Position numbers and translations under genes: made by a program. Source: a virus (lineage: Duplodnaviria > Caudoviricetes). From it: DNA of 64,000 bases. The notes beneath the pieces were generated by a model. That model had not been told where the DNA came from. It did not search any database and saw only the letters and a program-made list of their open reading frames with translations. Location: the IMG/VR virus record IMGVR_UViG_3300044712_000786, positions 128,001 through 192,000 of that record, one strand, 5' to 3'. This document shows positions 4,837-29,619 of the stretch, one piece after another (the stretch's first letter is position 1; the number at the start of each line of letters is the position of its first letter).

Positions 4837-4913
4837 TGGAGACGCAAGTTGGATTTGCACCAACGAATAGCAAGGTTGCAGCTTGCTGGTTTAGACTACT
4901 CACCCATTGCGTC
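4837..4913 (-). tRNA. tRNA-Cys(GCA)
   Basis: Anticodon arm GCAAG-CUGCAAC-CUUGC, CCA encoded. Confidence 0.9.
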
Positions 4914-4920
4914 CTGAAAA

Positions 4921-5919
4921 TTACTTCAAAACAAGAAGTTGCGTGCCAGCAACCAAATTTCGGTTGAGGCTAGTAGACTGGATAAAGACATGCCACTTGC
5001 CATGACTAGCAGGGTCTACTTGGATTTCGTAATCGGGCAGACCGAGCATATCTCGCGCATTAACGCCAGAATATACCTTCGCCGTTACTTTATCCTGAAT
5101 ACATACCTGTTTGTAAGCTTGAACCTTCTCGGGCTTAGTAATTTGGTAGTAAGCCGAACCTTTGACGTAAGGCTTTCCAGTCCAACTTTCTACGAAGCTC
5201 TTGATATCCTTCTTCTTACTAACAGGGAAAATCTCATATTGGTGAGTCTTTAGCTCATCCAAATTCCGTTTGACACTAGTTGTCGATAGGCTGCTAGCGT
5301 CAAGATTAAAAAGATTCTTTGTACTGCGAACTCCAGTGCTACGAGCCCTCATAAAGGAAGTCGTAACTGTAGTCATAACGTCACCGATATCGTTCATACC
5401 CTTGGCGGTAGTGTCCCAAGTCATTACATTACCGGCGGGGAACCCACAAGCTTTAGCTTGCTTAACTCCATATTCATTGGGGACCATTACGGACACGGTC
5501 CAATTATCCTTGAGTTGAGAAATCGCTTTCTTTAATTGAGGTTCCTTGTTCCGACTAGCATTCTCTTCGCCATCGGTAATAGCAATCAAAAGAAACGCAT
5601 GGTCTCCATAGAGTTGAGGCGTCTGCTCAAGGTCAGAGATTGCTTGCATCGTCCCATCGATAAGCTTGGTATTGCCATTAGTATAATAATGGTCTTTAAT
5701 CCTAGGGAGCCTCAATACATCCATATCGTATACTAGCGGCTCTACGCTGCTATTAAACAAATAAATTGAAACCCGTGTTTCTTGGTCAGTTTCTTTAGAG
5801 CTTTTGGCTAATTGAGCTACGTGAGTGTCAATGACTTTAATGGTTTCGTCCTTGATGCTGCTCATCGAACCGCTCGCATCTACAACCAAAGCTACGTGAT
5901 TGATAAGATTTTGAATCAT
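4921..5919 (-). CDS. von Willebrand factor A domain protein
   Basis: MIDAS DASGSM ... T ... ITDGEEN. Confidence 0.85.
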   Translation of the reverse strand: MIQNLINHVALVVDASGSMSSIKDETIKVIDTHVAQLAKSSKETDQETRVSIYLFNSSVEPLVYDMDVLRLPRIKDHYYTNGNTKLIDGTMQAISDLEQTPQLYGDHAFLLIAITDGEENASRNKEPQLKKAISQLKDNWTVSVMVPNEYGVKQAKACGFPAGNVMTWDTTAKGMNDIGDVMTTVTTSFMRARSTGVRSTKNLFNLDASSLSTTSVKRNLDELKTHQYEIFPVSKKKDIKSFVESWTGKPYVKGSAYYQITKPEKVQAYKQVCIQDKVTAKVYSGVNARDMLGLPDYEIQVDPASHGKWHVFIQSTSLNRNLVAGTQLLVLK

Positions 5920-5925
5920 ATCCCA

Positions 5926-5953
5926 ATTCTAAAAAGAATTTTTGAAAAGTCAA
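5926..5953 (-). promoter_or_regulatory. sigma70-like promoter
   Basis: TTGACT-N16-TAGAAT; same geometry recurs at 12378, 14193, 23246, 28046. Confidence 0.6.
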
Positions 5954-6176
5954 CGTTAAAAACCAAAGGGCTGACTAAGAAGCGCCCCGCTATTGGAGAC
6001 CCGATATCGTTGAAGTCTGCCTTCCCTTTCCCATACCCCTGACAATTGAGGGGCAACCCCAGTTAAATAATCCCTTCCCTCTAAAACAAATGTATCTAAA
6101 TCGGCTTGCCCCGTAGGAAGCGAGTGCAAACGATTCATATAATTACCTTGGGAGCCGCTGATATACATACTCTTTA

Positions 6177-6413
6177 TTACACCTTACAGGGGCATGTATC
6201 CTTTTCGGGATTAACCCCCTTACCACAAACTGGACAAACCCACCCCTTTTTAACGGCAAATGGATAAACGGGATGTATATCTTGAGCCAAGCCCCCAACT
6301 GTCGTATTATAACAGCTATAACACAAATTTTTTCCCTCAAAACAATACAAGGCCGAAGTGAGATTCCCGCAACGAGAACAGGCAAACTTAAATATACTAT
6401 CGTTATCTTTCAT
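6177..6413 (-). CDS. Cys-rich zinc-finger protein
   Basis: Multiple CxxC motifs. Confidence 0.6.
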   Translation of the reverse strand: MKDNDSIFKFACSRCGNLTSALYCFEGKNLCYSCYNTTVGGLAQDIHPVYPFAVKKGWVCPVCGKGVNPEKDTCPCKV

Positions 6414-6756
6414 ACAACTTAGCTAGACCATTTTTCAACAGTTCATCATTCAAGTTAGTAGAAGAACCATTAGAATCATAGTAAACTTCAGCTAGATAGC
6501 GCCCAAAGGCGTCTGCTTTGAAAGTTTGGATAACAACCAACTTATTCAAAACCGTATTAACTACGTAAGACTTACCTAGGAGGGCTCTTTGCTTATCCTC
6601 GGCGTTAGAACTCGTTAACTCCCAAGTATTTATGCGATTCAGCCGCAGACGAAGAAGCATCTTTATCTTAAATCCTACATCTACTTCCGCGTCTACCGTA
6701 TCGCCGTCTACTACATTAGTTATTAAAGCCTTGTATAAATATGCTGGTTGAACCAT
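6403..6756 (-). CDS. thermonuclease (SNase-like)
   Basis: VVDGDTV, LRLNRINTWE, DAFGRYLAEV, LLKNGLA. Confidence 0.85.
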   Translation of the reverse strand: MVQPAYLYKALITNVVDGDTVDAEVDVGFKIKMLLRLRLNRINTWELTSSNAEDKQRALLGKSYVVNTVLNKLVVIQTFKADAFGRYLAEVYYDSNGSSTNLNDELLKNGLAKLYER

Positions 6757-6764
6757 GCATAAAA

Positions 6765-6995
6765 TTACACGCGCAATGGGGCGAAACCCGTAAAATCTAA
6801 CCCATTATGCAATAACTCGTCCCAATAACCTTCAGAGTCTTTATAAATGATTCTCTTAGGGCCGAATCTATTAATGACTTCTTTAACTACCCATTCAGCA
6901 TCATTAGTAACGCTTATGTTTCCTAAATCCAAATCCTCAATATAAACGATATTAGCGGTATCGTTGACTACCTTGAAATCAGCATGGGGTTTCAT
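6765..6995 (-). CDS. hypothetical protein
   Basis: ORF track. Confidence 0.65.
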   Translation of the reverse strand: MKPHADFKVVNDTANIVYIEDLDLGNISVTNDAEWVVKEVINRFGPKRIIYKDSEGYWDELLHNGLDFTGFAPLRV

Positions 6996-7185
6996 TGGGA
7001 TAAATTTTCGCTCCGCTATGTTCCAAAATGTAAGCGGTATAACAGGGCACGCAAAGCTCTTTGTAATTCCAGATGGTATGAAAATTGTCGCCCGTTATGT
7101 TGTTTTCTACCCCACAATCAATCTTATACGAAGATACTTCATCCCTAGTATGGCAAACGTCGCATTCGAGAATAATGTGCTTCAT
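6979..7185 (-). CDS. hypothetical CxxC protein
   Basis: ORF track. Confidence 0.55.
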   Translation of the reverse strand: MKHIILECDVCHTRDEVSSYKIDCGVENNITGDNFHTIWNYKELCVPCYTAYILEHSGAKIYPNETPC

Positions 7186-7427
7186 ATCGTCTCAATATTA
7201 TTAGGAATAGGTCCAACTTCTCGACCAACTTGCTCGTTCCAATCTTTGTTTATTTCGTCTAATTTGTCCGCTAAAGCCCTGAGTAACCACGCAACAAAAC
7301 AACCGCCTTGATTAGGCGGGGGCCAATAATAAAAATATCCATCTACATCTTTTAGAAAATCGCCTATATAAGCCGTTTCAACGAATACTTGATAACAGCT
7401 ATCGGAATCTTTCTCAAGCCTTAACAT
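7182..7427 (-). CDS. hypothetical protein
   Basis: ORF track. Confidence 0.65.
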   Translation of the reverse strand: MLRLEKDSDSCYQVFVETAYIGDFLKDVDGYFYYWPPPNQGGCFVAWLLRALADKLDEINKDWNEQVGREVGPIPNNIETI

Positions 7428-7431
7428 AAAA

Positions 7432-7506
7432 TGGTAGCAGCAGAGGTACTCGAAACCTCAGGGAAAACAGCCTTATGAAAGCCGCCCGTCACCTAGACTT
7501 GCTGCC
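7432..7506 (-). tRNA. tRNA-Met/Ile2(CAT)
   Basis: Loop UUCAUAA, acceptor GGCAGCA/UGCUGCU-A-CCA. Confidence 0.75.
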
Positions 7507-7706
7507 AGTTTTTTCAGAGAGTTGTCTACTTGCTGCATCGCCCAATCTAGCTTAGACTCGTCCATTTTTTCAACAACGTCCTCTATACTAAGTTCTAAAT
7601 TCTTGTGAGAGTACATTCGTTTAAATACCATCTGATGCCCCTCGGGGAGTTGGCGCAACCCATTTAAAATAGTATCTCTCGCAAAACGCTGCAAAGATTC
7701 GTTCAT
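7473..7706 (-). CDS. hypothetical protein (3' end overlaps tRNA)
   Basis: ORF track. Confidence 0.6.
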   Translation of the reverse strand: MNESLQRFARDTILNGLRQLPEGHQMVFKRMYSHKNLELSIEDVVEKMDESKLDWAMQQVDNSLKKLAASLGDGRLS

Positions 7707-7811
7707 TACTCCAAGTCTACCAAATCTTTTTCCTCTGTCAATCCCTGATTTATCAGTTTTACAAAGGATTCCCTTAATTTCCTTCGGACCTTTTGATTAG
7801 CCTTTTTTTTA

Positions 7812-8072
7812 TTAAATTTTTTCTGAAGTCTCGCTTCCCTTCTCATCGTTTCCTCCTTTAATTTGGACTTCAATGGGATTATCCAAGAAAATAGTTTGCT
7901 TCTTCTTTTTACTTAGCCCTGAACGACGTTCATAAGCGACAATAAAAAGCCTGCCTTCATTATCTATTTTGAAGACAGGCTTAACTCTATCCTTGGCGAT
8001 AAGTTTCTTAAGATGATTCTTCACGCTTATATTATAGCGTGGAGCAGATATTTTGTCTACGGAACTATCCAA
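7812..8072 (-). CDS. hypothetical protein
   Basis: ORF track. Confidence 0.5.
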   Translation of the reverse strand: MDSSVDKISAPRYNISVKNHLKKLIAKDRVKPVFKIDNEGRLFIVAYERRSGLSKKKKQTIFLDNPIEVQIKGGNDEKGSETSEKI

Positions 8073-8506
8073 ACAGCATTAATTTTATCAAGCTTCTTAT
8101 TATAGCTATAGACAATGTTCGTCCAAGGGCCTACTTCATAAGACCCTACGGTAAAAGCATTTGAGCCAACGGGACGGCACCAGAATTTATATGTCCCGCT
8201 GGGAACGCTTTTGGCTAGCAAATTGACAAAAGTAAAATTAGTAATTGACTGCCCGTTAACCCTTAAGAACTGAAATGTCCCAGTGGTATTAGGCAGAGCA
8301 GGGTCTTCATCCAGAATTTGACCCGCTACCAAGTTTGTGGTAGTAACCGCTACAACATTAGTGCTCGAAACCCCAATATCATACCCGAGAACGGTATAAC
8401 TAGAATCTACATACTTCTCCCAACTTAATAGGGATTTAGAAGTAGCTGTTTGCGCAAACGCACTAAAACCAGCCAAAAGACAGACGGTAAATAGTAACTT
8501 TTTCAT
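8057..8506 (-). CDS. secreted beta-rich protein
   Basis: Signal peptide MKKLLFTVCLLAGFSAFA; Thr/Asn-rich. Confidence 0.7.
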   Translation of the reverse strand: MKKLLFTVCLLAGFSAFAQTATSKSLLSWEKYVDSSYTVLGYDIGVSSTNVVAVTTTNLVAGQILDEDPALPNTTGTFQFLRVNGQSITNFTFVNLLAKSVPSGTYKFWCRPVGSNAFTVGSYEVGPWTNIVYSYNKKLDKINAVWIVP

Positions 8507-8525
8507 AAACTTTATTACACTAAAA

Positions 8526-8600
8526 TGGTCCGGTAGTCTGGATTTGCACCAGAACAGTTCCCTTCACAGGGGAAGATGCTACATTACATCACGTACCGGA
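8526..8600 (-). tRNA. tRNA-His(GTG), U-1:A73 type
   Basis: UUCCC-CUGUGAA-GGGAA; 5' U pairs with A73. Confidence 0.85.
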
Positions 8601-8695
8601 TAAATCGGGAAGGAGTTATCAATTCCCCGCTGACTCAGTCGGCTTTTCAAGGGCCTTATATAGATGATAAGTCTAAGTTTCTGTATGCTAAAGCT

Positions 8696-16176: not shown

Positions 16177-16252
16177 TGGAGGCTCAGGTTGGAATTTCAC
16201 CAACGTCAGTCAAGTTAACGGCTTGATGCTCGAATGTCTGAGCTACTGAGCC
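16177..16252 (-). tRNA. tRNA-Asn(GTT), second copy
   Basis: UCAAG-CCGUUAA-CUUGA; U73. Confidence 0.8.
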
Positions 16253-16394
16253 AATATTAAATCTCGAATCCATCTTAAATGGACTACTTGGCTTTCAAGA
16301 TTTTTAAAAGCAATTACTACATCACGAGAAGTTAAATAATTCATCGGATGATAACAAAAATCATCCCTCACGCGCACTACCTGATATAGGTGTT

Positions 16395-16583
16395 TCATAA
16401 TTGTTCCCAATATAGTTCTTTGGGGTCCTTGGTCAATTCCATAATCCTCTCTAGGATTTCCTCCCTTGTCTTTCGTCTAGCTCGCCCCTTTTTGACCCCG
16501 TCCTTGGAGTTACTACAAATAGGGCACTTATCAGAATTATGCCGCTTGTTTTGATGTTTAGGGGGTTTACCGTAGGGTTTCAT
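16395..16583 (-). CDS. small basic protein
   Basis: MKPYG...CPIC...KGRARR. Confidence 0.6.
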   Translation of the reverse strand: MKPYGKPPKHQNKRHNSDKCPICSNSKDGVKKGRARRKTREEILERIMELTKDPKELYWEQL

Positions 16584-16756
16584 ACAGAAGCCTCTGCCCC
16601 CACTAGAGCCAAAGCTAAGCTTCCCACGGGCTCCCCAGCTTGCTTAATAACTCTTCTTAGATGGTCCGCTACCTCTTTACATGCTTCCTGCTCAGCGGCA
16701 GAAAGCTGAGAAATAAGACCTTTAATAATTAAAACAGTTTCTTGTTCACTTGTCAT
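16580..16756 (-). CDS. hypothetical protein (58 aa, not in ORF track)
   Basis: Manual translation MTSEQETVLIIKGLISQLSAAEQEACKEVADHLRRV... Confidence 0.55.
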   Translation of the reverse strand: MTSEQETVLIIKGLISQLSAAEQEACKEVADHLRRVIKQAGEPVGSLALALVGAEASV

Positions 16757-16760
16757 AAAA

Positions 16761-16836
16761 TGGTAGGCATGGCAGAAATTGCATCTGCATAAAACAATTT
16801 CGAAGATTGGTGCCTAATCTATTCGGCCACATGCCC
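16761..16836 (-). tRNA. tRNA-Arg(TCG)
   Basis: CAAU-CUUCGAA-AUUG, CCA. Confidence 0.85.
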
Positions 16837-16851
16837 ATAAAATTTAAAACG

Positions 16852-16958
16852 GGGATTTCACTAATGTTCCATTAAAAAGTGTGCTGCCAATTACACTACC
16901 GGGGCATAAGCGCCCCAGAGAGGACTCGAACCTCTACTTCCTTCATCATGTCTATCCC
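16852..16958 (-). ncRNA. YrlA-type Y-RNA-like RNA enclosing a circularly permuted tRNA domain
   Basis: Order T arm - acceptor 3' strand - GCUUAU loop - acceptor 5' strand - D arm, inside a GGGAUAGAC...AGUGAAAUCCCC stem. Confidence 0.7.
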
Positions 16959-16961
16959 TAT

Positions 16962-17044
16962 GGAGGATTTCACTAAACGGGACCGTCGCCCCTCGTTCTA
17001 CCCTCTTTCTCGCTTGTAAGGCGAGCGAGTAATAATCTATCTCC
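16962..17044 (-). ncRNA. paralogous Y-RNA-like scaffold carrying a UAC anticodon-like hairpin
   Basis: GGAGAUAGA...AGUGAAAUCCUCC; inner CUCGC-CUUACAA-GCGAG. Confidence 0.6.
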
Positions 17045-17056
17045 ATTTAGCTAAAG

Positions 17057-17131
17057 CATCCCAGACAGGAGTTGCACCCATATAAATCTTGGTTCGTAGC
17101 CAAGTGCCTAATCTATTCGCGCCACTGGGAT
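17057..17131 (-). tRNA. tRNA-Arg(ACG), CCA not encoded
   Basis: CUUGG-CUACGAA-CCAAG. Confidence 0.85.
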
Positions 17132-17139
17132 AAATCACA

Positions 17140-17204
17140 AGCCGCTATCGATGTTCCGCCCATAATAGCCAGTTATCAGGGCAATCAATAGAACACTAAC
17201 GGTT
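17140..17204 (-). ncRNA. hairpin-closed spacer RNA
   Basis: Nested stems AACCGUUA/UAGCGGCU, UGUUC/GAACA, GCCC/GGGC. Confidence 0.4.
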
Positions 17205-17223
17205 AAATATAAAACAATAAAAG

Positions 17224-17505
17224 TCATAATGGTTCATTAAACATCTTCTGAAGAGCTTCCAAAGTAATCTCTTGCCTCGAAATCTCGCGCCAATGAAGGT
17301 CGCTTATCGGTTCACTCTTATTACCGTAACCAGCTTGAGTTTCAATCTCAACTATGAAATACTTAGCTTTTGATTCGTCCGAACAAGCTCTTTCAATAGC
17401 TTTATCTAAAACTCCCCAGTGACCCCTTTCGACGTATTTATACAAGAAAACTACGGTGTCTTTGTCGCCTTGTATCTCGACCCGCTTGATGTTGATTAAG
17501 TCCAT
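17224..17505 (-). CDS. hypothetical protein
   Basis: ORF track. Confidence 0.6.
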   Translation of the reverse strand: MDLINIKRVEIQGDKDTVVFLYKYVERGHWGVLDKAIERACSDESKAKYFIVEIETQAGYGNKSEPISDLHWREISRQEITLEALQKMFNEPL

Positions 17506-17509
17506 AAAT

Positions 17510-17583
17510 TGGTTGCGGTTTGTGGAGTTACACCACCCCCCTAGCTTATGAGACTAGGATGCAATTACTTACACCTTCCCGCA
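17510..17583 (-). tRNA. tRNA-Met(CAT), initiator-like acceptor
   Basis: UGCGGG.../CCGCA-A-CCA; loop CUCAUAA; lacks the three G-C pairs of the anticodon stem. Confidence 0.7.
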
Positions 17584-17586
17584 AAT

Positions 17587-17675
17587 TGGTGCGAGCGGTA
17601 GGATTTCCACCTACGGCGTAGCTTTCGCTAGACGGCTTAAAAGGCCGTTTCCTTCGTGTCCTCGGTCACGCTCGC
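17587..17675 (-). tRNA. tRNA with TTT (Lys) anticodon and long variable arm
   Basis: ACGGC-CUUUUAA-GCCGU; V arm UAGC-GAAA-GCUA; 89 nt. Confidence 0.8.
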
Positions 17676-17680
17676 GTGTG

Positions 17681-17734
17681 CCCATCCTTGACTCGCGTCT
17701 TGTCTTCAACACCACCTTGTTAAGACGGGATGGG
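17681..17734 (-). ncRNA. 54-nt three-way-junction spacer RNA
   Basis: CCCAUCC/GGAUGGG closing stem, GUCUU/AAGAC and GAC-GCGA-GUC hairpins. Confidence 0.5.
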
Positions 17735-17735
17735 T

Positions 17736-18176
17736 TTAAATTAACGTATCATTAAAAATATCTGCCGTTAGGTAATCTGCCGCTATATTGAACTTTCCTT
17801 TTCTCTTAGCCTTTTCGATACGTAGAGAAATACCTGACTTAAAATCTTTTGCAAAACTAGACTTAATATAGTAACAGTTTTGATTCTCTGGACAATAGAC
17901 GGCAATCGCATCTATATCACTAAAATCAATTGTTTTAGCTTTCCAACCTTGGGTATTAGTAGAAATACTTCGTAGTGGAATAACTATTGAACCATTCACC
18001 AATCCGACATATTTTACTGATAATCTCGCTAACTTTCCATTTGCACTAATAGCTATAAGGTCAAAAGGTAAATGTTCAGAAATTGGCAATGCTACTTTAA
18101 TGCCTTTACGGTCTAAATCAGCGATTACTTGAATTAATCCAGTATCGCCCTTCTCTTTAGTTATGGCCTTTGTCAT
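17736..18176 (-). CDS. PD-(D/E)XK endonuclease (PDDEXK_5-like, putative homing endonuclease)
   Basis: KGDTG...DL..KG..VALP..EHLPFDLI...SVKY. Confidence 0.75.
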   Translation of the reverse strand: MTKAITKEKGDTGLIQVIADLDRKGIKVALPISEHLPFDLIAISANGKLARLSVKYVGLVNGSIVIPLRSISTNTQGWKAKTIDFSDIDAIAVYCPENQNCYYIKSSFAKDFKSGISLRIEKAKRKGKFNIAADYLTADIFNDTLI

Positions 18177-18233
18177 AACTATTATTACACCAGAATACGC
18201 AACTAGTGTAGTTTAATTTATATTAAATAATTA

Positions 18234-18308
18234 TGGGTCCCCCTCAGAGACTCGCACTCTGTTTCACTAGTTTACAGGACTAGGCATCACTATCAATGTT
18301 TAGGGGGC
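18234..18308 (-). tRNA. tRNA-Thr(TGT)
   Basis: CUAGU-CCUGUAA-ACUAG; G1.A72 mismatch. Confidence 0.8.
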
Positions 18309-18313
18309 AAAAT

Positions 18314-18400
18314 TGGTGCGTCGTGTGAGTAACGCTCTCACTCGCCCCCGAAGGGGAACGGGGTTACAGCCCGTCTAGCCTCTTTAGCCTCTACCGACGC
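18314..18400 (-). tRNA. tRNA-Tyr(GTA)
   Basis: ACGGG-CUGUAAC-CCCGU, long V arm, A73-CCA. Confidence 0.88.
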
Positions 18401-18409
18401 ATTAAAAAA

Positions 18410-18565
18410 TTAAGGTATAAGTAACAAATGATGATATTCAAGAACGTTTCGAATTGTCTGAGCTAAACTTAAACCGCACACGCCTTCCCGTTGACCCTCT
18501 TCCCACTCTTCGATTGTTTGTGCGATTAATTTAGTAATATCATCCCATGTATTTGGATTTTCCAT
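18410..18565 (-). CDS. hypothetical protein (51 aa, not in ORF track)
   Basis: Manual translation MENPNTWDDITKLIAQTIEEWEEGQREGVCGLSLAQTI... Confidence 0.5.
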   Translation of the reverse strand: MENPNTWDDITKLIAQTIEEWEEGQREGVCGLSLAQTIRNVLEYHHLLLIP

Positions 18566-18569
18566 AAAA

Positions 18570-18803
18570 TTAGTTAGAACCGGAAATCAGCCAACGGTCC
18601 TTTAATTCCTTAAACTTAGCTTTCATTGCAAATTCATCGTCTGGATAAGCGTGTCTAGCGGCAAGTAAAGCTAATTGGACGGTAAGCTTATGACGTAATT
18701 CGTCTAGGGTCCCATCCACTCTATAATGTGGAAACTCTCTTATCTCTTCATTAGTCAACAAACGGTCGTCGTCTGTTAATACCATGCTCATAGTTAACTT
18801 CAT
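18570..18803 (-). CDS. hypothetical protein
   Basis: ORF track. Confidence 0.6.
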   Translation of the reverse strand: MKLTMSMVLTDDDRLLTNEEIREFPHYRVDGTLDELRHKLTVQLALLAARHAYPDDEFAMKAKFKELKDRWLISGSN

Positions 18804-18806
18804 AAA

Positions 18807-19100
18807 CTAAGAATTTAAGGCTTTAATATGTTTTACTAACCACGAAGTATGAATAGTCTCAGAAGTAAAACCATTTTGCCATTTTACTATTGCATATTCT
18901 CCGTAACAATAGTGATTATCTTGGAGGTTTAAGTTTGTAACTTCGCCAGTTAAATTATTTTGATGAATTTCTCTATATTGCTCTTTATCATACTGCTCAC
19001 CATCATACAGCATAGAAGCCCACTTATGCTCTAATTTAACCGTGTCTCCCACTTGTAAACCAGAAGTTTTCATAGACCAGAACGGTTGTCTTGAAACCAC
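18807..19100 (-). CDS. hypothetical SH3/KOW-like protein
   Basis: LQVGDTVKL...GEV...AIVKW. Confidence 0.55.
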   Translation of the reverse strand: MVSRQPFWSMKTSGLQVGDTVKLEHKWASMLYDGEQYDKEQYREIHQNNLTGEVTNLNLQDNHYCYGEYAIVKWQNGFTSETIHTSWLVKHIKALNS

Positions 19101-19264
19101 TTAATAATCTGTATAACTTGAGGATTCTCGGAGTCCACACAATCAGGTAAGATACCTTGAGCTATAAGGAACCCCATAGAGCCCTTGCAATCTTCTTTGG
19201 AAGGAAAAGCCCCAACGAAGTCCTTAGTCGTTTCTTCTATTACCTGTTCTTGCAATGATTTCAT
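19070..19264 (-). CDS. hypothetical protein
   Basis: ORF track. Confidence 0.55.
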   Translation of the reverse strand: MKSLQEQVIEETTKDFVGAFPSKEDCKGSMGFLIAQGILPDCVDSENPQVIQIIKWFQDNRSGL

Positions 19265-19271
19265 ATTAAAT

Positions 19272-19338
19272 TGGTCGCCCTTGCGGGTCTCCCGCTTCTC
19301 CGCTCAATAGCGGTATCCTTAATTTAGACGATTGGGCG
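19272..19338 (-). pseudogene. degenerate tRNA (no assignable anticodon)
   Basis: ACCA end, Glu/Gln-like D arm, 6-nt anticodon loop, 4-nt T loop. Confidence 0.55.
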
Positions 19339-19368
19339 ATTAAATTGGTTTAGCGCTCTCCCATAAAT

Positions 19369-19436
19369 TGGAGCCCCATCGGATATTGCAATCCGCACGC
19401 TTGTTTACCGAACAAGACTAGGCACTTGCACAGGGC
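19369..19436 (-). tRNA. D-arm-reduced tRNA-Thr(GGT)
   Basis: 68 nt; CUUGU-UCGGUAA-ACAAG; no D stem. Confidence 0.65.
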
Positions 19437-19730
19437 TTACATAAACATTTTTCCTATAAGTCTAATTTCTAAAATACTCACATGGATAGTATTTCTAATA
19501 TCAGGTTGAACCATCAAGAAACGGCCTAAATGAAAAGAGGGTTCATCATAGAATCTGCTAATTTTATCCCAAAGTTGTGGAACAATGCACTTAATATTTA
19601 AAGATTTCATTTTTTATAGGGCTACCCAAAACTGATATATATAAAGGTAATCTAATATCAATTACTTCCCTAAGATGAACATAGATTATTCTAGGCAGTT
19701 GAAAACATGAAGTAGTAAGACTGACCTTTT

Positions 19731-21020
19731 TCATTTATTCAACTCAAATCCATGAATCTTAAACCTATGTTGAACTTCATCCCAAACCGCATTCAATACA
19801 GCGGGGTCTTCATGAACTTTCCCGTTATGAACATCAGGATGAATAGCCTTAATTCTCTCCATGTATTTTTCCTTAGCCAGCTTTAAAACATCTTTATGTT
19901 CCATTGGACGGCTCCAAAAACGATGACGCTTGTTAGGCCCCGCCCGAAGTCTCCCCTGAATCGTCTTTCCATTCCTGCCATACATATGGCTAGGCTGGTT
20001 CATATCGTTCTTTTTCAGTCCTAAGTATCTGAGCATCATGGTAATACTGGCAGTCTTGGGATTAATCTTATTAACTTCTATCGGTTTTTCATCATCCCCG
20101 TATTCCTTACTTTCCTTTTTCTTGAAGGATTCTACGGCAACCGAATCAGAAAGCTTGCTTTTCCTAATAGACTCGATATATTCACCTAAAGACTTAATAG
20201 AGTCTTGAGCGTCATCTATGGCAGACTTCATTTCTTGGAGAGAATCTATAGGAGCCGTTTCGAACATAGCTTCGAATTTTTTGGCATCTACAGATAAAAG
20301 ATTATCGAGAAATGCATTCGTTTTTATTAAAAACCTCTTAATAGAATACGTCCCATTAAATAGACGAAGCCTATTTGTCTTATCAGCGTCAACGCGAATG
20401 TCCTTCTCTCTAACTGTCACCGCTATTAATTTTCTCGCCTCATCAATAGAACATCGATTTGTGCTAATAGTGTTAGCAAGTTTTACTTGTTCTTCTTTGG
20501 GAATACCCACGAGTAAAGAGCAAATATAATAACTAAGCCGATTTCCTTCGGAAACCATAGGGCCAGCCAACTTTTGAACATCAGGCTCCAAAGTAAGAAT
20601 TTTAGCGACTAAACACACCCAACTTTGAGACCTACCTAATTTTTCTCCGATTTCGCGCTGGCCTACCTCTAACTCTAGAAGGTGCTCGATAGATTGGGCA
20701 ACCTCTAGGGGGGTAAGAGTATCTCTTTGTAAATTCGTAGTAAGAGACAAGAATAACTGCTCTACTTCCGTTTCTACACGTTTTACGACAGCATCTATAT
20801 TCTTGTAACCTAGCTCCTTACATGCGGCAAGACGCTTCTTTCCGTCAATTAATTCGAAAAATTCTCCTTCGTCATCTATAGGTTTTACTATGATAGGAAC
20901 ATTCAAACCATATTCATCTATGCTGTGTATCAATCCATTTAGAGAATCCTGATTAATGAATTGGCAAGGATTATTTGCAAATTGGCGAATGTTATCGATT
21001 TGGATAGACTTGATGTCCAT
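19731..21020 (-). CDS. ParB/Spo0J-family protein with C-terminal J-domain-like segment
   Basis: GLNVPIIV..ELIDGKKR, ENLQR-like TNLQRDTLTPLE, HTH; C-terminal IKAIHPD. Confidence 0.8.
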   Translation of the reverse strand: MDIKSIQIDNIRQFANNPCQFINQDSLNGLIHSIDEYGLNVPIIVKPIDDEGEFFELIDGKKRLAACKELGYKNIDAVVKRVETEVEQLFLSLTTNLQRDTLTPLEVAQSIEHLLELEVGQREIGEKLGRSQSWVCLVAKILTLEPDVQKLAGPMVSEGNRLSYYICSLLVGIPKEEQVKLANTISTNRCSIDEARKLIAVTVREKDIRVDADKTNRLRLFNGTYSIKRFLIKTNAFLDNLLSVDAKKFEAMFETAPIDSLQEMKSAIDDAQDSIKSLGEYIESIRKSKLSDSVAVESFKKKESKEYGDDEKPIEVNKINPKTASITMMLRYLGLKKNDMNQPSHMYGRNGKTIQGRLRAGPNKRHRFWSRPMEHKDVLKLAKEKYMERIKAIHPDVHNGKVHEDPAVLNAVWDEVQHRFKIHGFELNK

Positions 21021-21062
21021 TGTTTAAAAATATCAGAAATTTTACGGAACACAAGGAAAAAT

Positions 21063-21140
21063 TGGTGCGGTACGTCGGACTTGCACCGACCTTATTTCAG
21101 TTTGGAAGACTGACGCCATAACTATCTAGGCGACTACCGC
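21063..21140 (-). tRNA. tRNA-Gly(TCC)
   Basis: UCAGU-CUUCCAA-ACUGA, CCA. Confidence 0.88.
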
Positions 21141-21147
21141 ATTAAAT

Positions 21148-21221
21148 TGGTAGGGCATTTCGGTAACGCTCCGAGACACTAACTTTGTAGGAGTTAGTCA
21201 ACACCTTGGTTGCCATGCCCT
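21148..21221 (-). tRNA. tRNA-Val(TAC)
   Basis: UAACU-CCUACAA-AGUUA, A73-CCA. Confidence 0.8.
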
Positions 21222-21504
21222 AATGTAAATCAAAAGAAAAATAGGCTTTAGAACCAACTTCTTTATAAGCCTCTATTGGAAGAAAGTAAACGCCCAACAA
21301 TTTAGCAATAACTAAGCCTAAGTCTTTCTTATTGACTCTAAAACAAAAGGATTGATTATCATTAGTGCGTTCATTCCAATCTACGAATTCTAGCGATGGA
21401 ATTCTTGCTAAGCATCTTTTTATATCAGAGTGACATCCGCCCCATCCATAATCACAACCATCACTCCAACTATCTAACTTATAATCAGATTTAAATACTT
21501 TCAT
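21220..21504 (-). CDS. hypothetical protein
   Basis: ORF track; start moved. Confidence 0.55.
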   Translation of the reverse strand: MKVFKSDYKLDSWSDGCDYGWGGCHSDIKRCLARIPSLEFVDWNERTNDNQSFCFRVNKKDLGLVIAKLLGVYFLPIEAYKEVGSKAYFSFDLH

Positions 21505-21507
21505 AAA

Positions 21508-21583
21508 TGGTATCCCCGACTGGACTCCCACCAGTAATCTTCTCCTTAGAAGGGAGTGGCTTTAGTAATTTAGCTACGGGGAC
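21508..21583 (-). tRNA. tRNA-Arg(TCT)
   Basis: CUCC-CUUCUAA-GGAG, CCA. Confidence 0.88.
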
Positions 21584-21591
21584 TTAAAAAA

Positions 21592-21859
21592 ACTAGAGAT
21601 TGCTTTTACGCTAAAGACCAGAACATTGTACTTCTGTCTGCCGCTTCTTACTCGGTAGCCCTTAGCCGACTTTACGGCTAGCTCCACGCTTTCATCCCTT
21701 CCGCGAAGGCTCTTACATCCTATTATTAGCTACTAACAGGGTAGGAGAAATCCCTCGTATCGGATTTCGGGGTCATCCTGCGGTTAATTCCGCTCAGGTT
21801 CGTGCGAGAAGGACGAGTCACTTATCATGGATGGCTGTTTCTGAGCCTACCACTCTAGT
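21592..21859 (-). ncRNA. ~270-nt structured RNA with ends resembling 23S rRNA H43/H44
   Basis: CUAGAG/CUCUAG closing stem; GGCUCAGAAACAGCCAUCC and GCGUAAAAGC; several internal hairpins; no ORF. Confidence 0.7.
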
Positions 21860-22052
21860 TTAAAATTGTATGGTATTAGTTCAGGCTTTTACTGCTCTAT
21901 AATGATACGCTCCACCCATAACGGTTAAGCATGAAGCTGAGCTTTCTGTTCTCGAACAAATTGTGCCCGAAGTGAGGACTCTTACCCCAATTTACGTTGC
22001 ATCCCTCGGGCTAAGTGCAACCTGCTTTCTGTTCACGCAACATATGGAAGAT

Positions 22053-22128
22053 TGGTGGACACAGGCGGGTAACGCTCCCGCTTCTCACTCCTTGCAAGGG
22101 AGGCACATCACTTTTCTGTCACTGGCCC
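22053..22128 (-). tRNA. tRNA-Ala(TGC)
   Basis: CUCC-CUUGCAA-GGAG; G3:U70. Confidence 0.85.
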
Positions 22129-22142
22129 AAAATTATTGTTAC

Positions 22143-22171
22143 TTGCGCGGGGAATAACCGTGTAATATAAT
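22143..22171 (+). promoter_or_regulatory. promoter for the antisense HNH gene
   Basis: TTGCGC-N17-TATAAT. Confidence 0.5.
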
Positions 22172-22173
22172 AT

Positions 22174-22545
22174 ATGAGGCATAGCCCTATAAAATTACTT
22201 TGCGCGTTTTGTAAAGAATCTTTTACTCGACCACTGTCTAAGTTAAAAAATAGTAAATCAAAAATATACTTTTGCTCTCGTCATTGTAAAGACGAGGCTC
22301 AAAAAATAAAGAATAAATTTACCGATATCCACCCATCGCATTACGGAACAGGCTCTTGCAAAGAAACATATAGACGCATTGCTCTAGAAAACCTTCCTCA
22401 TAAATGCAATCGTTGTGGTTACAATAAATTACTAGGCGTATTAGCAGTACATCATAAAGATAGAGACAAATCAAATAATCTAGTTAGTAACTTAGAAATT
22501 CTTTGCCATAACTGTCATGCCGAAGAACATATTCTAAACGATTAA
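22174..22545 (+). CDS. HNH endonuclease with zinc-binding N-terminus
   Basis: CxxC, YFCSRHC, VHHKDRDKSNN...NLEILCHNCHAEEH. Confidence 0.85.
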   Translation: MRHSPIKLLCAFCKESFTRPLSKLKNSKSKIYFCSRHCKDEAQKIKNKFTDIHPSHYGTGSCKETYRRIALENLPHKCNRCGYNKLLGVLAVHHKDRDKSNNLVSNLEILCHNCHAEEHILND

Positions 22546-22548
22546 AAT

Positions 22549-22641
22549 TGGTACTCCCCGTAGGTAACGCTCCTACACACGGCACTCATCTAGTGCGACT
22601 TGGGCTTATAAGGCCCACGATTCTCTTTGAATTAGGGGAGC
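22549..22641 (-). tRNA. tRNA with TAT (Ile) anticodon and long variable arm
   Basis: UGGGC-CUUAUAA-GCCCA; V arm GCACU-AGAUG-AGUGC; 93 nt. Confidence 0.8.
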
Positions 22642-22650
22642 AAAAAATTA

Positions 22651-22710
22651 CCATCAGGCCATGGTTTACATTACCATCTTTAAGACTTACGGTTTGTATC
22701 GTCCTGATGG
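22651..22710 (-). ncRNA. hairpin-closed spacer RNA
   Basis: CCAUCAGG/CCUGAUGG 8-bp terminal stem; contains GUAAGUCUUAAAG. Confidence 0.45.
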
Positions 22711-22716
22711 ACAAAT

Positions 22717-22790
22717 TGGAGCACTATATCGGTACTGCCCCGACTTATCCAGATTGGCAATCTGATGCATCACTTTTATGCTAATAGTGC
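22717..22790 (-). tRNA. tRNA-Gly(GCC)
   Basis: CAGA-UUGCCAA-UCUG, U73-CCA. Confidence 0.88.
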
Positions 22791-22796
22791 TGAAAA

Positions 22797-22870
22797 TGGT
22801 CCGATATGTCAGAATCGCACTGACCCCACAAGTTCCCAAAACTTGCATGCTACTTCAACACCTATATCGG
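22797..22870 (-). tRNA. tRNA-Pro(TGG)
   Basis: CAAGU-UUUGGGA-ACUUG; C1-G72, A73. Confidence 0.88.
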
Positions 22871-22879
22871 AGTGTAAAT

Positions 22880-22963
22880 TGGTAGGCGTAGAGAGACTTG
22901 CACTCCCAAGGCTTCATGGTCCTAAGCCATGCGACTCTGCTATTCGTCCTTAACCATACGCCC
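22880..22963 (-). tRNA. tRNA-Leu(TAG)
   Basis: CAUGG-CUUAGGA-CCAUG; short V region, long D region. Confidence 0.82.
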
Positions 22964-23283: not shown

Positions 23284-23310
23284 CAAAAAAGCCCACTCTT
23301 TCGAGTGGGC
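23284..23310 (-). terminator. intrinsic terminator
   Basis: GCCCACUC-GAAA-GAGUGGGC-UUUUUU. Confidence 0.85.
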
Positions 23311-23434
23311 TCCTTATACTATGTTCTCCATCCTACGGCCCACTCAAGATATCTGGATAGAGAAATGACGGTTCCCACCCCGATTGGGTAGAATTCGCGT
23401 CACACACTGTTAAAATACTTTTCACTCTATTTAA

Positions 23435-25876: not shown

Positions 25877-27352
25877 TCACACAGTCACTTTGTTATAGCG
25901 TTCCTGACCAATAACTTCCATCATCGTGTCATAAGGGGTAAAGTTCTTACCCGATAGGACGGTTTTAAAGATAGAGGGAGAGAAACCACTAACTAAGGTT
26001 GCTCCGCGCTCATCCATTTCAACGGGCGATTGACCCGTATTAACTCTAGCGTCCAAGTTCCAAAATACAACATGAGGAACCTTGTATCCAGCCTTATCAA
26101 ACTTTTGCTTGATAGTCTCGAAATTACTCTTGCTATTATTGTCGCAAGCCTTATCGAACTGCATATCAGACAGGATATACAATACGTCAGGCATTTCCTT
26201 CTTAGGAACCTTATTCGCTACAGCAGCATTCAGAATCAAATCAAACGCAGCCTGTAAGTTAGTGTTTCCACCCCAAGGGGCACGCATTACGTTCAAAACC
26301 CGCTCAGTTAAAGAACTTCCTTGCACTTGCAATAAGCTAGGGCTAGCCTCGAAAGTAATGAAGTGATTCTTGAAGAAACCCTCAATTCTTTCTGCCATAT
26401 AGATGCCTAGACCAACACTAACCAACATCGGCTGTCCAGCCATAGAACCCGAAACGTCTACCAAGCAGAGACCATTGTGAGGATTCTCTTCTAAGTAGTT
26501 AGGCAAAGCCCTCCACTGCAACTCAACAGTAGGGTCTACTCCAGACTGAGCCTTTTGGACTAGCTCATGAGGATATAGCACAGACGCATTAATCTTAGCT
26601 TCGCCCGTAGCTACCTTACCAAGGTAAGCAGTATAGCCAATCGGGTCATGCTTGCCGAAAGCCTTTCGATAAATCATGCTGGCGCGAGAAGGAACAGACT
26701 CATAGTCAATCTCGTTCCAATTCTTGGAAGACATCTTTACTTCAACCACGTTAAGGTATTTCCTTAAGGAAGTAAGCATCTTGCGATAAGTCTTAGGAGA
26801 CATATCCAAAGCCTTCATAAGCTTCTTAGCAATAAGAGCCTCCGAAGAACCCTCAGAAGGCATCCACTTAGCCAACAGGGAAATAGCTTCCCCCTTCTTC
26901 ATAAGCTTCAAATCAGCTTTAACTTGCTTAACTAAGAACGAGGTAACTTCATCCTCTACCTTAGTGCCAAATAAGCAAAAAAGGTCATCAAAACGACCAA
27001 ATTCGGCTACATTAGCCAAGTTTCGAACAACAATTTTGGGATTGTTATTCGCCAACCAGCTTAGCATAGTGCGAAAAGCCTTGCGTTGTCCTTGACCCCC
27101 GCGAACATCACGGAAGTAAAAGGCAATCTTAGTAGCTAGCAACTTATCTTCGTTGAAAGCGTTGGAGAATAAGCTCAGAACATTAGCTTCGGGGGTATTT
27201 CGCAATGCGCCACCCAAGGCAAAGAAATCAACCAAGCTGCTCTTAGAAGTCGAAGGAGTGATAGCTCCATTTTCGGTTTGAGTCATAGTGTGAATCTTAG
27301 TAACGGTCTTAGGTGCCTTACTGTTCTTAATAGCTTTAATTAGTTTGCTCAT
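25877..27352 (-). CDS. DUF2828-type TROVE/Ro60-like protein with C-terminal vWA domain
   Basis: TENGA..LVDFF..., FYFRDVRGGQGQR, LLAKWMP, KINASVLYPHELV, MIDAS DVSGSM, ILSDMQFD, FWNL. Confidence 0.85.
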   Translation of the reverse strand: MSKLIKAIKNSKAPKTVTKIHTMTQTENGAITPSTSKSSLVDFFALGGALRNTPEANVLSLFSNAFNEDKLLATKIAFYFRDVRGGQGQRKAFRTMLSWLANNNPKIVVRNLANVAEFGRFDDLFCLFGTKVEDEVTSFLVKQVKADLKLMKKGEAISLLAKWMPSEGSSEALIAKKLMKALDMSPKTYRKMLTSLRKYLNVVEVKMSSKNWNEIDYESVPSRASMIYRKAFGKHDPIGYTAYLGKVATGEAKINASVLYPHELVQKAQSGVDPTVELQWRALPNYLEENPHNGLCLVDVSGSMAGQPMLVSVGLGIYMAERIEGFFKNHFITFEASPSLLQVQGSSLTERVLNVMRAPWGGNTNLQAAFDLILNAAVANKVPKKEMPDVLYILSDMQFDKACDNNSKSNFETIKQKFDKAGYKVPHVVFWNLDARVNTGQSPVEMDERGATLVSGFSPSIFKTVLSGKNFTPYDTMMEVIGQERYNKVTV

Positions 27353-28240: not shown

Positions 28241-29550
28241 CAGACGTTTTTACACGCTTTTTCTGTATCTAGTAGCCAATTTTTATCTTCGGGAGTAGGT
28301 CCCTTAGAGGTTACTAAGACGGGCGTTTCCAAATAGTTAGCTATAAAACTAATTATATCTGTATTACCCAACTCAACATATTTGGGTTTACTACCATTCA
28401 TTCTCTCGGTAAGGTGGCTTTGATAAGCAATATTGGTAGTAGGAGACGAATGAAGCTCCCACTCAACCTTATCATAATAGCTGAGACATATCTTCCAACT
28501 CTTCTTTAATGAAAGCTTATCTAAATGAGAAATAGCCAAGTAGTCTATCCCCCCATTTACCTCCATACAGTAAGCTAGTAGATTTAAGTCCAGCCAACCG
28601 ACTCTAAATCCACCTTGAAACTCATTTTTCTTGTTAAAATCATCGGGCAAAATATCCGTAAGCTGTTCATCTTCAGTAACTAACGGACCAGCGCCATGCC
28701 GAGTTGTATAAGCCCTCGTAATTCCTATTGTTTTCTTAGGATATGTCCAATCGCATCCCTTCAAAATCTCTTCCGCATTCTTAGAGGTAACAGTAGTCCA
28801 AGTAGTATGAGGAAAGAACCCAAAGTTTTCGTCTATTCCTATCCCTTGTGCCGCTTCGAATATAGGATGTTCGGAAGTTTTGACTAACAAGCCTGACATT
28901 TCATCATCAAGCAAAACAACGCTATTGGCAACGGTTTTATAATTACTTATTAAATCCTCTAAAGACAACTTGAAAGTATTGAAATTCTTATCATTTTTAC
29001 TAACCTTAGAAGCTAGCTCGAACATCCTAGACCTAACTCCTATCAGCTTCTCCATTAGTAAAGTGGGACTCTTAATATCCTTGAACCTCAAAACGAGATT
29101 GGGGTTGCTAAGAAAGTCTTGCATAGTGGCACCAATACCCATGCCGCAAGAACCGTGTCTTCCATCCCCCCGACTATTCTCTAAAATCCTATTATAAGCT
29201 TTATGAAAAGGGGTTGTTATCAAAGCCTCTTCATGAATAAACATTCTCTTGAAGCAATCGGTAATACCCAATTCTTCTAGCTTTTGATTTTCTACCAACA
29301 AGCCAACTGGATTAATTAATACATGTTTTGAAAGCAGGGTCCTAGTTCCAGCTACTAAAGTCCCGCTTCCAAATTGAGAAAAAACATGCGTTTTACCATC
29401 TGATAAAACAACCCTATGAGCACATTGGCTTCCCCCACTATATCTAACTACTAAATTAGACTTGTATTTGCGGACTAGGGAATCTACGAAAGTTCCCTTG
29501 CCACAATCGCCAAATCCACAATCTACCGTTATAAAAGCACAATTAGCCAT
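28240..29550 (-). CDS. purA: adenylosuccinate synthetase-like protein (divergent PurA family)
   Basis: GFGDCGKG, VRYSGG, FEAAQG, TTWT, YTTRHGAGP, FRVGWLD; start moved to MANCAF. Confidence 0.8.
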   Translation of the reverse strand: MANCAFITVDCGFGDCGKGTFVDSLVRKYKSNLVVRYSGGSQCAHRVVLSDGKTHVFSQFGSGTLVAGTRTLLSKHVLINPVGLLVENQKLEELGITDCFKRMFIHEEALITTPFHKAYNRILENSRGDGRHGSCGMGIGATMQDFLSNPNLVLRFKDIKSPTLLMEKLIGVRSRMFELASKVSKNDKNFNTFKLSLEDLISNYKTVANSVVLLDDEMSGLLVKTSEHPIFEAAQGIGIDENFGFFPHTTWTTVTSKNAEEILKGCDWTYPKKTIGITRAYTTRHGAGPLVTEDEQLTDILPDDFNKKNEFQGGFRVGWLDLNLLAYCMEVNGGIDYLAISHLDKLSLKKSWKICLSYYDKVEWELHSSPTTNIAYQSHLTERMNGSKPKYVELGNTDIISFIANYLETPVLVTSKGPTPEDKNWLLDTEKACKNV

Positions 29551-29555
29551 ATTTT

Positions 29556-29591
29556 TAAAAAAGGGCGGGTCTCTTTCGAAACCCGCCCCCA
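29556..29591 (-). terminator. intrinsic terminator between vWA and purA-like genes
   Basis: GGGCGGGUUUC-GAAA-GAGACCCGCCC-UUUUUU. Confidence 0.75.
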
Positions 29592-29619
29592 CCAACATGC
29601 ACAACTAACCCAACCTCTA

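Follow-up and report, generated by a model that had tools for sequence, protein, structure and literature searches.

A candidate phage RNA mimic of the GTPase-associated centre of 23S rRNA, encoded beside a tRNA-Arg gene

Introduction

Why should a phage carry, within a long minus-strand series of tRNA genes, a non-coding RNA whose two ends read like a functional centre of the ribosome? The locus that raises this question belongs to a 202.7-kb virus with direct terminal repeats, obtained from a rhizosphere metagenome assembly, and the stretch of it analyzed here (the window) is 64,000 nucleotides long. An earlier note, made from the sequence alone, had proposed that this RNA rebuilds the GTPase-associated centre (GAC) of 23S rRNA, i.e., the 58-nt uL11/thiostrepton domain (E. 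coli nt 1051-1108), with its helices H43 and H44. If this is true, phages copy a functional centre of the ribosome, going beyond tRNAs, and there would be an unrecognised battleground of infection around uL11, the translation GTPases, RelA signalling and toxins aimed at H43/H44. A classic RNA-protein model system would also have a natural, compact and self-closing form, and a gap would be filled in Rfam and in the annotation of phage genomes.

Location and limits of the element

The letters quoted in the earlier note for 21592-21859 match the minus strand exactly. A covariance model built from other phages (model R1, described below) sets the limits of the RNA, hereafter the GAC-mimic, at 21591-21860 of the minus strand, i.e., 270 nt, and finds it in single copy in this phage genome. 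No ORF of at least 40 aa overlaps it. It is flanked by an A/U-rich spacer on one side and by a tRNA on the other: tRNA-Arg(UCU), at 21508-21583 of the same strand, begins 8 nt past the end of the GAC-mimic. The G+C content is 0.49, versus about 0.40 around it. The folding energy is unremarkable when compared with shuffled sequences (z = -1.6), so stability by itself is ordinary and the case for the GAC-mimic is comparative.

Resemblance to 23S rRNA

The E. coli sequence 1051-1108, as given in the earlier note, proved letter-perfect against rrlH of strain MG1655. The H43 word of the GAC-mimic is identical in 16 of 18 positions to nt 1062-1079 of that rRNA, and the H44 11-mer in 10 of 11 to nt 1090-1100. 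With up to two mismatches allowed, the 64-kb window contains the 18-nt H43 word a single time, and it is absent from all of 100 shuffles; BLAST of the same word against E. coli rRNA gives only E = 0.9. The H44 11-mer alone is not significant (three matches in the window versus 1.1 expected). It sits 218 nt downstream of the H43 word in the same orientation, and the complement of the 5' flank comes immediately after it. Model R1 matches this copy end to end (positions 1-155 of 155) with 40.9 bits and E 1e-8, versus about 70-113 bits for typical family members, and in the E. coli rrn operon it gives a single match, at 23S nt 1048-1111, with 46.9 bits. The model alignment and the comparison with the family, therefore, bear out that H43, H44 and the enclosing helix are rebuilt in rRNA order by a non-coding phage RNA.

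Concerning a possible identity with a characterised family, no full match was obtained. Rfam 15, applied at the gathering score and with E values up to 10, gave nothing on the GAC-mimic when run on the window, and no family either at the loci of 13 other members. GOLLD and ROOL were rejected on the same ground, as no covariance-model match to them appeared in Rfam 15. An LSU rRNA gene or fragment was also rejected, since nothing ribosomal was found beyond the equivalents of nt 1051-1108 and there was no LSU match at E up to 10. Other ribosomal sites were looked for in the interior of the element by BLAST against E. coli rRNA, and the short 23S and 16S matches were at chance level and non-collinear. 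A sarcin-ricin-loop pattern is absent from this copy and from the 94 family stretches screened.

Anatomy of the copy in the window

All the coordinates in this section are on the minus strand. The 5' strand of the closing helix (21853-21860; RNA nt 1-8), which occupies the place of the end of H42 in 23S rRNA, is complementary to the 3' strand (21591-21598; RNA nt 263-270), with AACUAGAG base-pairing to CUCUAGUU. The H43 analogue (21828-21852; RNA nt 9-33) has the base UGG/CCA, the stem GGCU/AGCC and the loop CAGAAAC. In it, the A1067 equivalent is at 21842, two atypical residues, C1066 and A1071, are at 21843 and 21838, and the stem pairs 1057-1081 and 1058-1080 are preserved by compensation. 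The junction and the 5' strand of lower H44 were located by the model alignment and the family profile at 21820-21827 (RNA nt 34-41). The sequence of this part, UGAUAAGU, is the family consensus UUAAAGAGU minus one base; it retains the equivalents of A1088, G1089 and U1090, and has A in the place of G1087.

The next part is a lineage-specific insert of about 204 nt (21616-21819; RNA nt 42-245), bounded by GAC and GUC. The earlier note had put this large insert at the junction of H43 and H44, a placement that has to be corrected: in the family alignment the insert interrupts the 5' strand of H44 between the U1090 equivalent and the UUUA/UUUG linker, a position that is the insertion point of the whole family. 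It is predicted to be multi-branched, with a candidate hairpin CCG-AGUAAGAAG-CGG. The linker between the insert and the H44 hairpin is UUUA (21612-21615), as in 9 of 80 family members, the family consensus being UUUG. The H44 hairpin, GC-GUAAAA-GC (21602-21611; RNA nt 250-259), contains the A1095 equivalent at 21607 and is followed by AAU (21599-21601), which stands at the 1101-1103 equivalents and replaces the ACA of the family. With respect to the 3' signature of the family (UUUG, GCGUAANAGC and ACAC), the GCGUAANAGC hairpin is present and both the linker and the trinucleotide that follows the hairpin are changed, which makes the copy deviant, though still recognisable. Forcing the GAC architecture on this RNA costs just 1.3 kcal/mol above the minimum free energy.

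A family of phage elements

Scanning of IMG/VR with the H43 word yielded more than 118 contigs, and nearly all of the matches listed display the hairpin, then UUAAAGAGU, then non-ribosomal sequence and, 11-324 nt further on, GCGUAANAGC. Thirty phage elements, none of them from this genome, were aligned, and model R1 is the covariance model derived from that alignment. When RNAalifold was run on the same 30 elements, the closing helix, H43 and the H44 hairpin all emerged in its prediction, and 10 of 17 pairs had compensatory changes. In IMG/VR, model R1 gave 84 matches in loci found through H43 and 85 in loci found independently by the 3' signature. The family has at least 158 distinct members in IMG/VR, with lengths of 57-433 nt and a median of 198, the copy in the window (270 nt) being at the upper quartile. 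No description of such an RNA came up in searches of the full-text literature, and in our view the family represents a novel type of phage RNA.

Some carriers are cultured phages. Unannotated copies, confirmed by the model, are present in Pseudomonas phage pf16, between tRNA-Asn and tRNA-Pro, and in Cronobacter phage GAP32 and Xanthomonas phage XacN1, in both cases between protein genes. Their positions are 29415-29605 of the minus strand of KU873925.1 (pf16), 289514-289759 of JN882285.1 (GAP32) and 150357-150590 of the minus strand of AP018399.1 (XacN1). BLAST also indicates Serratia phage BF, several Erwinia jumbo phages, Aeromonas phage 4_4572 and Pseudomonas phages Astolliot and UNO-G1W1. 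The proposal thus lends itself to direct testing in cultured phages of Pseudomonas, Cronobacter, Xanthomonas, Serratia, Erwinia and Aeromonas, whose copies had gone unannotated.

In 185,579 prokaryote genomes, the 3' signature was found in just 57 stretches, which is about the chance expectation, and model R1 confirmed 34 elements in 33 of those stretches, mostly from metagenome bins. By this measure, the family is essentially viral. The elements of gammaproteobacterial phages bear the family signature and not the host-type H44 sequence, which argues for descent within phages under selection over repeated capture from hosts. Three cultured Clostridia-type isolates, Flintibacter muris DSM 110149, Clostridiaceae bacterium strain 9 and Bacterium D16-76 (loci L488, L449 and L494), have model-confirmed copies on large contigs.

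Covariation and conservation of residues

The covariation of the homologues, which the earlier note had suggested as a check, was evaluated in an alignment of 84 sequences. In the paired columns, 95.3% of the cells pair, versus 71.1% after shuffling, and the covariation score is 0.573, versus 0.129 for shuffled alignments and at most 0.12 for slid controls. The closing helix displays double compensatory changes in 8 of its 8 pairs across the family, its sequence itself being arbitrary. All four Watson-Crick types are seen at the pair 1058-1080, and the basal helix of the insert covaries across the family too.

Concerning tertiary structure, the contacts of the 58-nt domain, which we take from its crystal structures to include U1060, A1088, the pair 1082-1086 and the juxtaposition of 1056 with A1103, have counterparts in the family. 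U1060 and A1088 show no variation (155 of 155), the isolated pair 1082-1086, which lies outside the model, alternates between U-A, C-G and A-U, a purine is found at 1056 opposite A1103 in 71 of 84 sequences, and G1087 pairs with the stand-in of C1102 in 73 of 84.

As each of the two samples fixes one loop by construction, loop conservation was scored in the opposite sample. Both loops, on whose conservation in homologues the earlier note had made its reading depend, are kept: A1067 in 56 of 70 elements found via H44, and A1095 in 75 of 80 found via H43. In the H44-found sample, the remaining 14 members have G, C or U at 1067, position 1068 is always a purine, and there is no variation at G1071 or C1072. 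In the H43-found sample, G1093 and A1098 are conserved in 80 of 80 and U1094 in 79 of 80, and position 1097 is free, like in rRNA. Just ahead of G1091, the columns of this sample read UUUG almost without variation, a signature absent from rRNA.

These data bear on another explanation of the locus, namely a decaying captured fragment of rRNA or a chance resemblance. The poor BLAST value of the H43 word and the modest folding z-score are what one would quote for it. The compensatory changes in every pair of the closing helix, the UUUG linker and ACAC signature common to phages of unrelated hosts, the confinement of the resemblance to the 1051-1108 equivalents without any LSU match, and the failure of the H43 word to appear in shuffled windows all count against it; for the family it is refuted, and its probability seems to us next to nil.

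A divergent copy and its search for relatives

On comparison of sequences, the copy in the window is to be regarded as a divergent, atypical member of the phage GAC-mimic family. Its H43-like hairpin, with a loop of the GGCUUAGAAGCAGCC type, has the changes U1066C and G1071A, at positions where U1066 and G1071 are invariant in 70 and 68 H44-ascertained elements, respectively. This copy also lacks one junction base and the purine at 1056, and the pair G1087-C1102 is converted to A/A. Relative to 23S rRNA, the differences of this copy are C1066, A1071, A1087 and one junction base fewer. Considering the low model score together with the changed invariant positions, the missing junction base and the A/A combination, it seems reasonable to interpret that this copy may bind less well or may have drifted. 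As one of the most deviant members of the family, it is useful for asking which residues truly matter. Metagenome rRNAs with the C1066/A1071 loop do exist; there A1071 is combined with a pair A1091-U1100, which is absent from this copy.

Only two members, L020 and L072, are similar to this copy, and their inserts are unrelated to its own. When the GAC-mimic and the region upstream of it were compared by BLAST with 50,697 phage records, nothing matched, and the exact H43 word of this copy had no match in IMG/VR. A pattern for the lineage-specific 3' motif produced 117 new loci, almost all chance matches, and in none of them was there an H43-like hairpin upstream. Of 120 cases from a scan of metagenomes with the H43 word of this lineage, 102 were genuine rRNA genes, and no relative of the GAC-mimic was among the 120. 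Thus, in these searches no homologue of the 204-nt insert was found.

Four kb from the GAC-mimic, at 25877-27352 of the minus strand, there is a gene for a 491-aa protein with the domains DUF2828 and DUF7788 (E 1e-44 and 2e-50). This protein has only one relative in IMG/VR, with 44% identity. The related phage contig found through it, a 41%-complete fragment, gave no match with model R1.

Genomic context and transcription

A tRNA gene lies at 300 nt or less from 84 of the 158 elements, and in 84 of 84 it has the same orientation as the element; in 70 the distance is 100 nt or less. There is no tRNA within 300 nt of the other 74, nor within 2 kb of 57, some of these loci being truncated. The earlier note had suspected a tRNA-associated class of large phage RNAs; its membership in a tRNA-associated class is supported, and in view of the Rfam 15 results this class is neither GOLLD nor ROOL. 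No protein cluster occurs in more than 6 of the 158 loci, so that the elements have no constant neighbour among the proteins, as would suit an RNA acting by itself.

This context invites the interpretation that the RNA is a module of the tRNA operon with a role in structure or processing, in which a very stable GAC fold would serve as a folding unit, a nuclease block or a spacer that aids tRNA maturation or stability, with no ribosomal ligand. The strict co-orientation and closeness to tRNA genes, the lack of a partner protein gene nearby and the free variation of the inserts agree with it. Nevertheless, a stable fold alone would need no particular residues on the surface of the loops, and yet A1095 is kept in 75 of 80 elements and G1093 and A1098 in 80 of 80 despite the divergence of the sequences. 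Neither would such a module be expected in the 74 loci with no tRNA within 300 nt (57 of them with none within 2 kb, some loci being truncated) or between the protein genes of GAP32 and XacN1. We consider it unlikely.

Concerning the tRNA genes themselves, the 14 tRNAs called by Rfam at 4840-22963 of the minus strand all have G55 in the T loop, which is of the UGCAAAU type in place of UUCGAAU. Their D loops lack the usual GG, and they score low, at 29-56 bits. In structures of the EF-Tu ternary complex on the ribosome, the elbow of the incoming tRNA has A1067 of H43 stacked on it. It could then be imagined that the free GAC, alone or with uL11, binds or sorts phage tRNAs or ternary complexes, and both the residence of the family among tRNA genes and the coincidence, in this phage, of G55 T loops with an unusual H43 loop would suit such a tRNA-directed RNA. 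On the other hand, the tRNAs beside other family members score normally (60-73 bits), so the G55 T loop is a trait of this phage and the odd elbow is no trait of the GAC-mimic family. Also, the ribosomal contact with the elbow is weak without the rest of the A site, and there is no covariation evidence for this reading, which thus appears distinctly improbable.

Another RNA of the same strand, at 22053-22128, is a 76-nt cloverleaf-like molecule missed by ARAGORN and by the Rfam tRNA model. Its acceptor stem contains the pair G3:U70 and one bulged U, its anticodon loop carries UGC (Ala), its T loop reads AGCGUUA, and its ACCA end is encoded. A 21-mer of it was not found in IMG/VR. Between 74 and 85 nt of this RNA are common to contigs of four sequencing runs, two of them metatranscriptomes, the flanks being different, and one wastewater RNA contig matches it perfectly. 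The contigs of two RNA runs and of a second DNA run cover 22051-22136 only and do not reach the GAC-mimic.

A scan for promoters was not above chance (11 sites versus 6.7 +/- 2.4). The promoter-like sites 22164-22193 and 22263-22290 of the minus strand might start a transcript comprising the cloverleaf-like RNA, the GAC-mimic and tRNA-Arg. A strong terminator-like hairpin with 13 pairs and a U run is found upstream of these two sites, at 23286-23315 of the same strand.

RNAs that look like rRNA have classically served as leaders, e.g., the L10 and L1 leaders, and this precedent is the reason to consider a cis-acting leader of ribosomal-protein type, i.e., an rRNA look-alike in an mRNA, where binding of the ribosomal protein represses translation. 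However, the next gene downstream is a tRNA gene and not a coding sequence, no ribosomal protein gene is nearby, the uL11 gene is absent from the genome, no Rfam leader matches, and there is no conserved downstream ORF across the 158 loci. A ribosomal-protein leader was accordingly rejected as the identity of the element, and we consider cis action of this kind very improbable indeed.

Proposed role

Having considered these alternatives, the interpretation that we find somewhat probable is that the GAC-mimic is a small RNA of a phage family, a free-standing copy of the GAC, transcribed and processed with tRNAs and acting in trans as a mimic of the ribosomal site. The sequence comparisons themselves show the fold, the membership in the family, the conservation and the genomic context: a self-closing copy of the uL11/thiostrepton domain that many large phages maintain under selection, and whose position and orientation suit expression and processing together with tRNAs. 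It would be co-transcribed with the neighbouring tRNA genes and released by the tRNA-processing enzymes. As tRNA-Arg starts 8 nt after the GAC-mimic, an RNase P cut at the 5' end of the tRNA would trim the 3' side of the GAC-mimic. The released RNA would adopt the authentic tertiary fold and act as a molecular mimic, with the variable insert projecting from H44; this insert is dispensable for the core, as the smallest members have none (e.g., L013, of 60 nt, and a few others).

Host uL11 would be the most likely ligand. It is the simplest candidate, because conservation is strongest at the residues on which its binding fold depends and no uL11, RelA/SpoT or Macro domain gene was found in this phage genome; in the absence of a phage uL11, any protein partner of this kind would be host-derived. 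Binding of uL10, which the earlier note had also envisaged, seems unlikely from the sequences, since the substitute of H42 has no conserved sequence and only covaries. The relaxed character of A1067 (not A in 14 of 70) speaks against a strict need for the contact with factors and thiostrepton. An alternative ligand could be something directed against this site, e.g., a Tre23-like toxin that modifies rRNA. The benefit for the phage would be that ribosomes in the infected cell are spared or altered. As a precedent, Tre23, a T6SS toxin that blocks EF-G, ADP-ribosylates H44 at nt 1095-1098 (PMC8661411), and ADP-ribosyltransferases also act in anti-phage defence, as reported for CmdTAC (PMC11618068). 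A decoy against a site-directed toxin is plausible in principle. To our knowledge, however, no defence system attacks the H43/H44 site, and uL11 is very abundant, so that a sponge for it would need expression at the levels of tRNAs.

A bolder version of the trans-acting mimic is a new RNA anti-defence, produced at tRNA-like levels, in which the GAC copy would absorb an effector that disables H43/H44 (a Tre23-like ADP-ribosyltransferase or a nuclease) or would strip uL11 and so block the RelA-dependent stringent response. We hold this as a possibility well short of an even chance.

Comparison with known systems

The family resembles the GAC of 23S rRNA in the order of the elements, in the H43 loop and stem and in the H44 loop, as well as in U1060/A1088, the covarying 1082-1086 pair and the juxtaposition of purine-1056 with A1103. 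Unlike the ribosomal domain, it is phage-encoded, adjoins tRNA genes and is free-standing, being closed by a short helix, arbitrary in sequence, where 23S rRNA continues into H42 and domain II; after U1090 it has an insert that ranges from 0 to about 320 nt, it contains the UUUG linker, and it has A for U at 1101.

With ribosomal-protein leaders such as that of rplJ (Rfam L10_leader), the family shares the nature of an extraribosomal RNA that imitates the rRNA site of a ribosomal protein. Those leaders are cis-acting, loose imitations located in cellular mRNAs upstream of the regulated gene, whereas the GAC-mimic is viral, a near-literal copy, and has no coding gene next to it. Like GOLLD and ROOL, it is a phage-borne non-coding RNA in or beside tRNA arrays, but it is far smaller (57-433 nt) and has a recognisably ribosomal core. 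As examples of phage RNAs that imitate an RNA of the host or of a defence system, it may be compared with pseudo-ToxI of phage PhiTE (PMC3475682) and with phage tRNAs, of which those replacing the tRNAs cut by host anticodon nucleases share with the GAC-mimic the location in tRNA arrays. Nevertheless, pseudo-ToxI imitates an antitoxin RNA and phage tRNAs work as tRNAs, while the GAC-mimic imitates a ribosomal domain that is not swappable into the ribosome.

Variation of inserts and copy number

Within the variable insert there may be a conserved docking motif. In the window, the 13-mer CGAGUAAGAAGCG, at 21644-21658 of the minus strand, is identical in the otherwise unrelated insert of locus L118, and could form the candidate hairpin with the 9-nt loop mentioned above. 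G(G/A)GUAAG motifs related to it were found 20-45 nt ahead of the UUUG linker in 16 of 55 inserts, versus about one expected.

A second insertion, in the 3' strand of H43 just past the stem that closes the loop, occurs in L378, L395, L397 and L430. With insertions in both H43 and H44, the core tolerates expansion at two sites. The contig of L020, whose element at 2095-2506 is the member closest to the copy in the window, also has a tmRNA (117 bits) about 0.8 kb downstream. Two GAC-mimic copies per contig were seen in L051, L374 and L470, and those of L051 (5125-5361 and 5442-5707) are in tandem, 80 nt apart.
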